Shown here one piece after another: positions 1,895-53,000 of a stretch of DNA of 64,000 nucleotides; within the stretch, counting starts at the first letter, position 1, and every line of letters starts with the position of its first letter. The notes under the pieces were generated by a model. The model saw nothing but the letters and a program-made list of their open reading frames with translations. It had not been told where the DNA came from and did no database searches. A program made the translations under genes and the position numbers. The DNA comes from Callorhinchus milii (taxonomy: Eukaryota): positions 11,224,001-11,288,000 of the forward strand of contig NW_024704743.1 in NCBI RefSeq assembly GCF_018977255.1. The letters are read 5' to 3'.

Positions 1895-2047
1895 CTCCAC
1901 TATGACATTGAGAGCTGTATCACAACCAATGCACAAATCGGTGCCTGGCACATTATTACTTATGGTAACAGGCACCATACAGACTGGGATGCAAAACTCA
2001 TCGTATTTTTCACGTGCTTCACGTAATTGCAGCAAACCTTCAAAAGC
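1895..2047 (-). CDS. PFKP: PFK exon 16b (153 nt, PFKL-like variant) [51 protein letters not shown]
   Basis: gtccag|GCT...GAG|gtaagt; TISNN motif; phase 0-0. Confidence 0.9.
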
Positions 2048-5000
2048 CTGGACTTTCAGTACAAAAGCAATTAGTGTTTGGTGACCTACAGACACACAGA
2101 TGAGTGTGACTTATATCATATCACTTTAGTTGTGATGAGGTTTGGCTTCCCATTGGCAAACACTGAAATGCCACAGCTATTGAATATAAAAATGCATTCA
2201 AGTGCACAAAGGTGGTTAAAACCAATGAATTTGCAGCTGGAAAGTTCACATTGGGAGGTTCAGCCTGAAGCAAGTTTGAACGATATTGGGACTACCAGTG
2301 AAGTCTGAACAGGAAAGGAACAGTTAGTGACAAAAAGGTTTGGCATGTTAGTTTGTCAGGCAACATTTCATTACAATCCTCAAACTGCTAACTGGAAATG
2401 AAATGCATCATTGGAATGGAACGATGAAGTTTGATCCTTCAATGTCAGCTCTTCCTACCATTGTGAAGCAGAAATCACCAAGCATTGGATTGTTCACCCA
2501 TTAACAGAGGATATGAGCTGGGTTTAAACAATTGTGAGTCAGGTTAGTTTGACGCTACTGTTGATGTGTTGTTGCAATAGCAATCCTGCTCAGTAATATT
2601 AATCCCGTTTTTCACCTAAATGCAAGCCATAAGAATTTTGAACTCAATCCTCTGAGGGATGGGGAGCCAGTGGAGCTGGACAAGGGTGGGTGTGATGGGG
2701 TCATAGAGTCTGGTGCGGGAGAGGACACAAGCTGCAGAGTTTTGGATGATCTGCAGCTTGTGGAGGGAAAAGTTGGGAAGATCAACAAGCATAGTCGAGC
2801 CTGGAAGTCAAAGCGGGTCACGGAACGGATGTTGGGGCGAAAGGACAGTTGAAGGTCGAACAAGATCCCTAGGTTCCCTAGTGCCTGGTGAAGTGAAGTG
2901 TGCATACGTGGATGCTGATGCTGCCAGTGCCTGAGGTGCGGAGGCGCTGGCGCGAGCCAATCAAGAGAGCCTCATTCAACTGTAGAAAGGTGGCTCTCAT
3001 CCAGGACTTTTTGTCTGACCTGGGATTGAGGGTGGAGGCAGAGAGGTAGGATTGGGTGTCATTCGTGTATATGTGGAATTTGACCCCACGTCAGCAGAAG
3101 ACGTCACCAAGAGGGTTGAAGAGGTTGAAGAAGAGAGGACTGAGGACAGAACCCTGAGAAGAACCACACGAGACAGTGCGGGGGCTGGAGGAGAAACCAA
3201 AGTGCAGCCGGTGTGAGAGATAGGATAGGAGGTGAGAGGAGAGGCAGTGAAGAGAGGTCCACAGTGTCAAAGGCAGCAGAGAGGTCGAGGAGGACATGGA
3301 GAAAAGGAGCAGCAGGAGAGGAAGGAGTGAAGCTGGGAAGCTACAACTCTTTCAAGGATCTTGGAAAGGAAAGGGAGGCTGGAGATGGGGCGGTAGTTAA
3401 TGAGCAGGGATGGGTCCAGGGAAGGTTGTTTTTTGGGGGGTTGGGGTGATTCTAATACCTCTCTTGCATGAAAATATTTCTTCATCTTCCCCACCCTCTT
3501 TTTACTATTCCAGTGACAACCCTGATCTCTTATTACCAATTTATTTACAAGCCTTTAGAGAAATTAATTTTGTACAAAGGTATTTTCCAGAAATTGATTG
3601 CAAAATATGAATACGTATGACTTTGAGATGAAATGTTTTCACAGTTTTAGGAAATTGACAAAAATGTTGCCAGGTTAATAGTTTCCTATTAGTACGCAAA
3701 CTAGATGCAGTTATTATTTTAAACCGCAAAACTCAATTAATAGATCAGGCTGCCCAAGGCAAAGCAGTGACAGACACAGCAAACATGTTCATGCTTTACA
3801 ACATGCATGAATTTACTTACCTCAGATCAATATTAGCTACACCATTATATACCAGCACAAACCACCAAACTATAGGCAACAAAAGTTTTACTTTTTCCTT
3901 CTTCAGTTTTTGAATAATTTTTGATCTGAGCTCCAAAATGTTTTTTTTAATGTAATGTATCCAATTATTATTCTAATTTTCTCCCCATTTACATATGTTC
4001 CTTGACCCCAGTCTCCCCTTGCCAGTGGTCACTCTTCACGTGTGAGCCTTGGCAGTGAGCTTTGGGAGGCCACTTGACTGCTGAGACCGGCATAACCAAA
4101 ATTGTCCTTTTCAAACAGAGTTGAGGAAACACTTCTTCACTCAGAGGGTAGTGAATTTATGGAATTCCCTACCCCAGAAGGCTGTAAATGCTCAGTCCTT
4201 GAACATATTCAAGAACGAGATGGATAGATTTCTAAAGGATAGGGGGATTAAGGGATATGGGGATAAGGCGGGCAGATGGAATTAGGTTAGAAGATCAGCC
4301 ATGATCTTATTCAATGGCAGGGCAGGCTCGAGGGGCCGAATGGCCTTCTCCTGCTCCTAATTCCTATTGACCTCTCCCCACTCAGCTGCCACACACATAT
4401 AGACCTAGTAGAGGGTTGCAAGAGGGATGAGGAGCAGGAACTCTGTCTGATATTACCCATCTTAACCCTGGGGAAGCTAGGGCCAATTCAGTCTCCCCAT
4501 GAGACCCCGGCTGAAACCTGCAAACTCCTTTCAGACCAGGAGTCGATTCAAAGAACTCATGGACAATAAACTGCAGCTTCAGCTTTGAGTTTGAGCTAGA
4601 CTTTATCAGTCCTACTGTAATACATTTAATCCAACTGAAATGGAAATGACCCGCCCGACACTTATAGAGGGTTCAGGTCTATGGTTATCAGTTGGTGCTG
4701 GTAGGTAAGCCATATAGCTGAAGGAATCCCAAGTCTCTTTGGAGTCATCGTGTTAGTATTGAAATCACATTTTCCTCAACAGACTTACATCAGTAATAGC
4801 GTTCAGGGCTGTATCTGCACCAATGCTGAAGTCTGAACCAGGCACATTGTTGGAGACAGTGGCAGGAACCATAACCATGGGGATACAGAACTCGTCATAC
4901 TTGGCACGCGCAGCTAACAGTTCCAAAAGTCCCAGGTATGCCTACAAGGCACAGCCAGATTAGTTTATATTCAAATATGTAAATTAGGAGACATGGTAAA

Positions 5001-50000: not shown

Positions 50001-53000
50001 TGCAAACGAAAAAGAGAACAAACTGAACCAAGATACGAATTAGAGTGCTGTTGTTGACTGTTAGTATGTGTGATAGCAGTCTTACCACCACATGCAGGTG
50101 TGCTCCAAAGCCAGTGGGACCAGGGGCACAGAGGCAACCACAGGAACTGGTCAGAGCAGGAGTTGTACCATGAGGCTTGTACTTACGTCCTTTATTATGT
50201 CAGAAGTTATAGGGACGTTATGCCTATTAATCGCTCCTTCTGATATAATTATGATATTCAGCCTTTTCTTGTTTGCACGGTTCTGAGAGGAAAACAAAAC
50301 CAAACTGAAACTCTTCATAAAGATTCAGACACAGGAAGTACATTCTGTGCTCAATAGTTTCACTCTCTGGGAGTCTCCTCTTGGCTGTGCAACCTACTGA
50401 ATCATCTAAACACTAGTAATTCCCACAATGGCTTTAGAATAGTCTTTCCAAATATGCTGTACATGAAAAAAGTGATCGAAATTGAAGACTGCACCATGAG
50501 TGAAACTATTAGCAGACTGTGCACTCCGTCACTAGACGTGTGCTTTCTTAAAGTACTCACATCCTTAACAAAATCAGAGGAAATTTGTTTTCCATGTCGA
50601 TCATTAGCTCCTTCTGCAACTATGATAATGTTCAACCTGGAACCCCTGGAGCGGCTCTGAAGAATGCAAAGAAATACTGGAACAATGAACACTGAGTAGG
50701 CTGGCTGAGGATAGTTGCTTTAAAGAGGGAGGAGATAGCTGTTCATTCTATATAAAGAAAACTTGCAAAAATGCAAAAGCAGCAAAGCATCTAGTTGCAT
50801 AATTTATTATTGTTTTTCTTGTCAAACTACAGCCAGTTCCTGTTGCACATAAAATGGGTGGAAGAAAAATGAGAATTTTTTNGGTCAGTCGGGTGTTTGA
50901 CACATGCAGAAACCCATCACTATGCTTAAGAGTATCCAAATCAAGCTGAAAATTTCATGCATCCCACCTACACATGGAAATTCCAGAGATAGATTGTTGG
51001 AATGGAATACAACCATAGAGGGACGGAGTTGGAGAGGAAATGCTGATCGATCAGGCTTCTTGACAGAATGCCTAGTGAAAGGGGGAGTGGACCAAAGTAA
51101 CCATCTGTAGTACTCATCCAATACCTGAGCCAGGCAGTACTCCAGGGCATTTTTATTGATTGATCAGCCTGCTAGCTGATCCACAGGACTTTGAAAGGGT
51201 AGATCAATCACAGGGGAAGTTCTTCTCCTTTGCTTATGATAAACCATGTGAGTGAACACAACGATAGAATGGTGGTCATAGCTGCACAGATCATGTGAAG
51301 CTTATCAATGCCTCACATTGATAAGATGGTGTTTTAAGCTGGTTCAATTCCAGCAGTATGTCAAACCTCACTTTAATGCCTTCAATGCCTTGGATTCTGC
51401 CTTTACCCATGTTTTCTAGGTAAAGACAAGTGGTAAACTAGAGACTAAAGCACACAGCAAGGGGTTTCCATGTATGTCCCACCTGTCCAATAAAAATATT
51501 AGAATGATATGAAAGACCAATGTAGTAGGAAAATACTACAGATGAGAAGATCTGGTAAAAGCTTAATAAAGAGTCCGTATTCACCAGTAAAGAGAAGATG
51601 AAGTATTTTTAATAGAAAAAGTTTGAATTGTGAAATGATGTAGAAAGAATTAATGGTGAATATATTTCCACTGGTTGGAGCATCAGCAACAATACTGACC
51701 TTTAAAGGAAATCAGGCATTTGTAAAATGAACATATAAAAGGTTATGTGGAAAGAGCAAGGATATGGAATTTCCTTTTATGGAGTGAGGGAGGGAGCCAG
51801 CATGACACAGACACAACGTGCATAAAGTTTCCTTGTGTAGTGAACGTTTTGAGGATATAGAAGAGCAAAAGAAAAAGATTTGTTTTCTAGAAGCATAGAG
51901 AAATAATTTAGCACACGTTTAATCCACGGCGGCCATGATCATGAAATATTTTGCACTGGCAATTTTAAAAGATCAGCCACAAATCAGGGTAATAATGAAG
52001 CACACTACAACAGGGGTTTTACGACATATAACCTGCAAATATTATTATAAAATTATTAGTGTTCAGCCCAAACTCAAATGCACCGTTCCTGCAATTACCA
52101 AAGTATTCTATAATGCTTAGGAAGTGATAAGTCTTTCAAATGAATCTGGAGCTGCACATCATGCTACATTTTTACCTCTGAAAGTTTTTCACACATCTGA
52201 TCCTCCCAGCCATCTTCCGGAGGAGATTCAGGAATGAATACCCAGTCGGCACCACAAGCCAAGGCACTTACAAGAGCTAAATACCTAGAAGGTTACAAAT
52301 ACGTACATTTCAAAACAATTAAAAGAATTGACTTTGGTAATAAATCTGCTATGATTAAATTTACGATTGTTATATTTATGCTGAAAAAATCATTACAAGT
52401 ATAACATTTGCTTACCCACAATGTCTTCCCATTACCTCCAGCACAAATGTCCTCTGGTGACTGCAAAAGAGAATGTCAAAATCTCAAGATTTATCTTCAA
52501 AACTACTTCCAGCACTAGTAAAAAAATAATGTTGTAATGGGAGGATGGTAATGTTGGTATTTTGGAAGAATGAGATTAATGGGTCAAATAATAATCTTTA
52601 TACAATAATACTAGTAATATTATAGAATTGAAAAAAAAGTGCTTGTACAGACATCCATAGGGCTTGGGTTATGTTGCTCATCTCACTGTTCAAGCACCAA
52701 AGTTATAACCTGTGCTCAGTACCATTTTTTAAATAAATGTTCAATTACATTCAATTGCAGAGACTATGAAGATTGTGCCCGGTTAGAATTATACAGGTTT
52801 TATGCATATTTCGCCCACAAAATACACACACTCTACAGTGTATCCTGTGAAGCGCTTTGAAACGTCTTGAGGATGTGATAAGGTGCTATATCAAATGCAA
52901 AAATCGTTATTATGAGTAGCGATACCCATAATATCCACCCCCCATTCTTCTCCTCTCCTAAACACATTCCAACTTTTTTTTATAATTTTCTGCTGGGAAA

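Follow-up and report, generated by a model that had tools for sequence, protein, structure and literature searches.

The stretch of chimaera DNA analyzed here (Callorhinchus milii, 64,000 nucleotides, positions 11,224,001 to 11,288,000 of NW_024704743.1; hereafter the window) carries exons 3 to 16b of a phosphofructokinase (PFK) gene on its minus strand. Judged from its sequence, the gene is PFKP, which encodes the platelet-type enzyme: with exons 8 and 16 left out, its protein falls within the starred PFKP clade with support of 100/99 in a backbone tree of 18 rows (a tree in which the branching order of PFKM, PFKL, and PFKP was not resolved), and the database proteins with an exact match to exon 16b bear the name Callorhinchus milii PFKP. 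Exons 8 and 16 of this gene each occur twice, and the two other PFK genes in the genome, C27 (PFKM-like) and C6 (PFKL-like), have a single exon 8 and a single exon 16 each. The four copies, and the intron that separates the exon-8 copies, are as follows:

50561..50656, minus strand: exon 8a, the PFKL/PFKM-type copy, with G5/S6 aligning to the E. coli effector-site residues G212/K213
50283..50560, minus strand: the 8a-8b intron, 278 nucleotides, holding a perfect 13-base-pair inverted repeat (50353-50365 / 50498-50510)
50187..50282, minus strand: exon 8b, the PFKP-type copy, with K5/K6 in the window; the sole copy seen in amniote proteins
4789..4941, minus strand: exon 16a, the copy orthologous to the canonical exon of human PFKP (V539), grouping with PFKM exon 16
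1895..2047, minus strand: exon 16b, counterpart of the alternative human exon in ENST00000413079, to which it corresponds in position, in order, and in having I at 539

A preliminary description of the window, made from its letters alone, had proposed that these are two mutually exclusive pairs of intact exons from which one gene could make up to four enzymes, and its account of their structure was accurate. All four copies are bounded by AG..GT, have open reading frames, and are in phase 0-0; the exon-8 copies are 96 nucleotides each (identical at 54/96 nucleotides and 17/32 residues) and the exon-16 copies 153 nucleotides each (92/153 nucleotides, 34/51 residues), with 278 and 2741 nucleotides, respectively, between the members of a pair. 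Both pairs thus have the hallmarks of tandem duplication: their members are neighbors and homologues, match in length and phase, and have intact splice sites. They are the only ones among coding exons 3-16b to have a second full-length match (tblastn, E<0.05). Synonymous divergence (pS) between the copies is near saturation, at 0.87 for exon 8 and 0.96 for exon 16, against nonsynonymous divergence (pN) of 0.31 and 0.23, which argues that the copies are neither chance likenesses nor recent duplicates. Whether the chain of exons 3-16 includes a single copy of each pair, both, or none, the reading frame is preserved; nonsense-mediated decay (NMD) therefore cannot enforce exclusivity, as had been deduced.

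The preliminary description had also assigned 8b and 16a to a P-like and 8a and 16b to an L-like type. Comparison with PDB chains bore this out for three of the copies: 8a scores highest with PFKL (38 bits, followed by PFKM with 34.6 and PFKP with 21), 8b scores best with PFKP, and 16a matches PFKP (95.6 bits) ahead of PFKM (77) and PFKL (68). The best score of 16b, however, is also with PFKP (76 bits, against 70 for PFKL and 63 for PFKM), and its L-likeness is therefore confined to the diagnostic columns, at which it is of the PFKL/invertebrate type. The clean switch between P-type and L/M-type isozymes that had been envisaged does not hold, as 16a is a P/M type and 16b an L or ancestral type that is still present in human PFKP.

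Splicing of the alternative copies

Splice joints were examined in assembled contigs from 4 of 13 listed runs, whose RNA status is presumed by the tool, over positions 46600-52500, the stretch that spans exons 7-9. At the contig joints, introns are excised precisely at their GT..AG ends. All four runs contain joints 7-8b and 8b-9, and one (run X1) also contains joints 7-8a and 8a-9; in that run the depth of the 8a joints (357/272) is comparable to that of the 8b joints (233/291), contig depth being a rough measure. Neither an 8a-8b joint nor a 7-9 joint occurred in any of the four runs, although these are contigs, from which rare forms drop out. Both copies of exon 8 are therefore spliced, in keeping with the preliminary description, and their use differs among the coded runs; the default form would appear to be 8b, with 8a a sample-restricted alternative. 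A retrocopy origin of the joints was considered and rejected, own-genome searches yielding only the four expected matches per exon.

RefSeq already models both pairs in Callorhinchus milii PFKP, as the preliminary description had suspected of existing annotations. The first 18 chimaera models comprise six with 8a, 11 with 8b, one that skips exon 8, and none with both; six further models combine 8a with 16a, and co-inclusion of 8a and 8b was seen in 0/24 chimaera models. All four single-copy combinations of exons 8 and 16 are represented in the chimaera, as the proposal of up to four forms from one gene would have it, though database models are no proof of full-length transcripts. All four are also modelled in fishes.

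The copies carry no obvious lock that would keep the members of a pair apart. Among the known enforcing features, neither a frameshift subject to NMD nor incompatible splice sites were found, as both pairs are frame-neutral and all sites are GT-AG, and the AG-free zones are short (22 nucleotides before 8b, 5 before 16b), which argues for exclusivity without a hard lock. Competition between copies under splicing factors is the likeliest arrangement and is consistent with the leakiness of exon 16 described below. A steric or distal-branch-point mechanism was rejected as unsupported: the 8a-8b intron has a single yUnAy motif, at a distance of 52 nucleotides from the 8a donor, but the AG-free zone before 8b spans just 22 nucleotides. 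A docking/selector type of RNA pairing was likewise set aside, as the lists of inverted repeats yielded nothing testable without conservation.

Three features may be regarded as leads to regulation: the 13-base-pair stem in the 8a-8b intron, the RBFOX motif TGCATG 90 nucleotides below 8b and 119 nucleotides below 16b, and the weak acceptor of 16b. The 5' arm of the inverted repeat overlaps the sole branch-like motif of its intron, and the hairpin is present in both the minimum-free-energy and the centroid structures; for the intron as a whole, z is -1.35, with 20/200 shuffles folding equally well, and for the wider region z is 0.24. TGCATG is not enriched in the window (35 occurrences against 43 expected). 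An alternative 16b acceptor further upstream (2048-2086, minus strand) is apparently used in UniRef model P0014, which fits the weakness of the usual one.

Distribution and age of the exon pairs

A search with the exon-8 region returned 1170 matches, the best 120 of which were inspected; its ranking favors double-inclusion models. At least 100 of 115 new proteins from this set have an 8a-type followed by an 8b-type segment, in the order of the window, and such proteins come from sturgeons, bowfin, eels, and many teleosts. A second sample was chosen on the C-terminus and not on exon 8 (the best 120 of 5358 matches). In this sample 42 fish proteins have 8b, five have 8a, and four have both; amphibians contribute 12 with 8b and three with 8a (the caecilians Geotrypetes and Rhinatrema), the coelacanth two with 8b, and three further proteins also have 8b. 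None of its 49 amniote proteins (reptile, bird, mammal) has 8a, all of them having 8b. Examination of 40 cluster members added 8a in bichir (two) and Geotrypetes (one), with none among the members from Xenopus, Ascaphus, Leptobrachium, salamanders, Microcaecilia, or birds. Exons 16a and 16b were found throughout jawed vertebrates in the C-terminus sample.

Each copy has diagnostic residues that do not vary from chimaera to caecilians and is closer to the corresponding copy of other species than to the neighboring one in its gene, the window's own 16b being weakly placed in the tree. Together with pN being far below pS, this argues against recent, lineage-specific duplication without purifying selection, one of the outcomes that the preliminary description had named as refuting it. 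Both pairs are ancient and conserved. Since 8a and 8b are shared by the chimaera, ray-finned fishes, and caecilians, the exon-8 pair is at least as old as the jawed-vertebrate ancestor; on more than one occasion 8a was apparently lost, or has gone unannotated, and in amniotes it was probably lost rather than left unannotated.

Whether the pairs are older than the split of PFKM, PFKL, and PFKP, as had been suggested, was addressed with trees computed under LG+G4, without a mixture model, from rows hand-picked among approximately 540 fetched proteins (44 and 48 exon rows, with two to three PFKM and four to five PFKL rows per exon); bootstraps of the exon trees were not fully settled. In the exon-16 tree, 16a groups with PFKM (99/97, starred) and PFKL forms its own clade, with the 16b and outgroup rows around it unresolved. 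A constraint that unites all PFKP copies costs 20.6 log-likelihood units (lnL; approximately unbiased [AU] test, p=0.11), and joining 16b with PFKL costs 0.4 lnL (p=0.51). Exon 16a and PFKM share V29 and S36, positions at which 16b, PFKL, and invertebrates have I and T. With the published dating of this event to Chordata (PMC8373072, below), it is likely that the exon-16 pair predates the paralog split, with PFKM retaining 16a and PFKL retaining 16b. AU tests rejected none of the hypotheses examined for either exon.

For exon 8, we lean toward a duplication in the PFKP lineage only, after the paralog split and before the divergence of chimaeras and bony fishes, with 8b a neofunctionalised default and 8a the ancestral form, shed several times. 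This scenario requires fewer events and is not rejected by the AU test (p=0.45; the AU tests for exon 8 gave p=0.45 and p=0.40). Outgroups have G5 (9/9) and mostly G22 (8/9) in common with 8a, whose L/M likeness may therefore be a retained ancestral state, with 8b a PFKP innovation. Exon 8b, which has the derived states, is the form found in all four runs and in 42/51 fish proteins; the examined proteins of frogs, salamanders, Microcaecilia, and amniotes have no 8a. Against it, the free tree, in which 8a joins PFKM and PFKL (89/83) apart from 8b (86/83), is 2.9 lnL better; the 32 columns do not decide between the two.

That topology is what would be expected had the exon-8 pair, as is likely for the exon-16 pair, arisen before the three paralogs, an ancestral two-by-two splice switchboard having later been partitioned among them. 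We regard this as a serious but somewhat less probable account. S6 is common to 8a, PFKM, and PFKL and occurs in 0/9 outgroup rows, and exon 16 indicates that PFKM and PFKL did each lose a member of a pair that predated them; however, both exon-8 branches lack a star, a single PFKP clade is not rejected, and the outgroup residues just mentioned may simply make 8a ancestral. A published tree pairs the liver with the platelet enzyme (PMC1508162), on which order 8b must have been lost twice independently if the pair is older than the split. A library-wide profile search, in which animal PFKs were collapsed into few representatives, yielded no lamprey, hagfish, lancelet, or tunicate PFK among the sequences inspected or named. 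The suggested age of the duplications is thus likely for exon 16 and is neither shown nor rejected for exon 8. The related suggestion that the paralogs later kept different copies is supported in that PFKM and PFKL each kept one: PFKM has one exon 8 of the 8a type and one exon 16 of the 16a type, and PFKL one each of the 8a and 16b types.

Effector sites, alternative readings, and related systems

Residues K211-G212-K213-K214-H215 of E. coli PfkA align with R-G-S-R-L of 8a and with N-K-K-R-L of the window's 8b. The nearby E222, which we take to be a substrate residue, is conserved in both copies. In the bacterial enzyme K213 and K214 are described as contacting the effector (10.64898/2026.02.05.704047, PMC4161293), and the equivalent pocket of PFKL, site 3, is reported to bind inhibitory ATP in the T state and to hold phosphate in PFKP structures (PMC11345425, PMC12203962). 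We infer that exchange of G-S for K-K would alter charge and space in site 3. Within exon 16, position 29 corresponds to residue 539 and is V in 16a and I in 16b; Lam et al. report a human PFKP mutually exclusive event with the change V539I near the fructose-bisphosphate site (bioRxiv 10.1101/292813, PMC7954323). Position 38 matches F537 of PFKL, a residue given as part of the AMP/ADP pocket (PMC8802628), and is F in 16a and L in the window's 16b. Variable residues thus fall at effector sites by alignment.

In the interpretation that we consider probable, gnathostome PFKP undergoes two ancient substitution events between tandem-duplicated exons, normally with one copy of each per mRNA, that retune allosteric pockets. 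Up to four subunits of the same length would result, with the catalytic core unchanged and the pockets locally altered: exon 8 would exchange G-S and K-K where the bacterial enzyme has G212/K213, positions that homology places in the lining of PFKL site 3, and exon 16 would change both the fructose-bisphosphate site (V539I) and the AMP/ADP site (PFKL F537), such that each switch may retune a different regulatory input. PFKM would have retained the 8a and 16a types and PFKL the 8a and 16b types, and amniote PFKP would have dropped 8a while keeping both exon-16 copies. The structure of the pairs, the splicing of 8a and 8b, their conservation, and the copy types of the paralogs are direct observations; the effects on the pockets, tissue control by splicing factors, and kinetic differences among the isoforms are what they lead us to expect.

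Several points weigh against this interpretation. Six of the 18 chimaera models (RefSeq models X1-X6) hold 16a and 16b together, as do 3/120 proteins of the C-terminus sample, and 8a and 8b occur together in 4/51 of its fish proteins. The splice-joint test covered four runs and the exon 7-9 stretch, as contigs that lose rare variants. The supplement of PMC5740500 lists a human PFKP candidate, probably exon 16, as not validated, with >10 joining reads. Membership of the exon-8 residues in site 3 is based on alignment to E. coli and not on a vertebrate ligand-contact list, and isoform kinetics were not found in the literature examined. Exclusivity at exon 16 is therefore leaky and falls short of the strict sense in which two copies are never co-included. 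Co-inclusion, which the preliminary description had said would refute it if routine, is not seen for exon 8 in the contigs of the four runs or in the 24 chimaera models, though it is modelled in some fishes; for exon 16 it appears in a third of the first 18 chimaera models.

An alternative reading is that the two choices are coupled, with 8b+16a (P-type) and 8a+16b (L-type) forming a binary isozyme switch. PFKL is of the 8a+16b type and canonical human PFKP of the 8b+16a type, and concerted retention is described for CACNA1 genes (PMC9741552), but we found no sign of coupling and consider it improbable: all four combinations are modelled in the chimaera and in fishes, tetrapod-like proteins assembled in Logan have 8b with either 16a or 16b, PFKM is of the 8a+16a type, and the TGCATG motifs below 8b and 16b would, if anything, link b with b. 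It is very improbable that the additional copies are annotation noise, or cassette exons in weak use, without distinct function, for although 8a appeared in just one run, was apparently lost repeatedly, and models with double inclusion or exon skipping exist, the 8a joints of run X1 are by that rough measure as deep as those of 8b, the diagnostic residues of each copy are fixed, and pN is far below pS.

Of these findings, the exon-16 half has already been published together with its age, and RefSeq models contain both halves. In the supplement of PMC8373072 there is a single PFKP event (155), consisting of two 51-residue exons with Chordata as last common ancestor, and none for PFKL or PFKM. 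This human event (PFKP-203/ENST00000381125 versus PFKP-205/ENST00000413079) involves the same exon, order, and V539/I switch as the window, to which the window adds the exon-8 pair. No passage describing the exon-8 pair was found in the literature searched, most subscription papers lying outside that search; the pair is present in database annotations, and the site to which it maps is plausibly allosteric. Human-centered catalogues would not reveal it, because amniotes appear to lack 8a.

Exons 9/10 of PKM1/PKM2 offer a parallel in another glycolytic enzyme under regulation, where homologous exons close to an allosteric site are likewise swapped; the kinetic consequence is established for PKM and predicted for PFKP, which has two clusters and is leaky at exon 16. 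The pattern in which one paralog keeps both copies and others one each is reported for FYN (FGR, SRC, YES1, FRK), CACNA1C/D (CACNA1F/S), and PGM1/PGM5 (PMC9741552); section 12 of that article, on subfunctionalised exon pairs, does not name PFK. PFKP, with PFKM and PFKL, shows the same pattern, in a direction that may differ for exon 8. Arthropod Pfk, including that of Drosophila, is the same enzyme and likewise has mutually exclusive exons, but a different exon varies: two wasp isoforms have exon 8 in common and diverge in the exon-7 homologue. Exon 7 carries the equivalent of G185-E187 of the same ancestral effector site. This suggests that arthropod exon 7 and vertebrate exon 8 may converge on one pocket. 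PMC9741552, which mentions the human PFKP event, classes the fly event as "different region, convergent" relative to it.

PFKM, PFKL, and PFKP are reported to be ~70% identical (PMC8802628). They differ in ATP inhibition and activator response, and at this level of identity the structural causes are hard to isolate; single swaps of 32- and 51-residue modules in one backbone would amount to four ready-made chimeras for probing site 3 and the activator sites. A bolder proposition, which we find doubtful, is that a pre-vertebrate PFK held both pairs and that chimaera PFKP keeps the full two-by-two switchboard, the isozymes being partly fixed splice states (PFKM 8a+16a, PFKL 8a+16b, amniote PFKP 8b with 16a or 16b), with exon 8 tuning the ATP/phosphate site 3 and arthropods doing so convergently via exon 7. 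If this were true, natural single-exon swaps in one backbone would isolate the pockets that make the three human isozymes differ.

Remaining exons and minor features of the locus

The other coding exons in the window are as follows:

60787..60864, minus strand: PFKP exon 3, the first coding exon within the window; exons 1-2 lie upstream in G000:C2
57788..57977, minus strand: exon 4, with a GC donor at 57786-57787
54975..55140, minus strand: exon 5
52416..52460, minus strand: exon 6
52176..52284, minus strand: exon 7, 109 nucleotides, homologous to the variable exon of arthropod Pfk isoforms
46700..46792, minus strand: exon 9
40743..40868, minus strand: exon 10
39840..39904, minus strand: exon 11
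34052..34121, minus strand: exon 12
33862..33876, minus strand: linker micro-exon, 15 nucleotides, in RefSeq model X4
29078..29125, minus strand: basic cassette exon in the inter-domain linker, 48 nucleotides
24826..24972, minus strand: exon 13
16198..16268, minus strand: exon 14
8731..8818, minus strand: exon 15

A short interspersed repeat occurs many times in the introns, on either strand (e.g., at 6794, 18982, 29669, 37833, 48175-48372, 59252, and 61119). Contig depth was very high at 48175-48372 and at 50890-51010, and there is a single N at 50882 in intron 7, 226 nucleotides upstream of 8a.

The 48-nucleotide and 15-nucleotide linker exons lie near the linker loop that adjoins PFKL site 2, and PFKP models of bichir, tarpon, amphibians, and turtles have inserts of ~6 residues, mostly beginning with D, at the same spot. 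A candidate 6-nucleotide micro-exon downstream of the window (L015:7705-7710, minus strand, G000:C2) fits the 2-residue insert of some isoforms; among the fetched PFKP proteins that match the pattern, 103 have this insert and 100 are without it.

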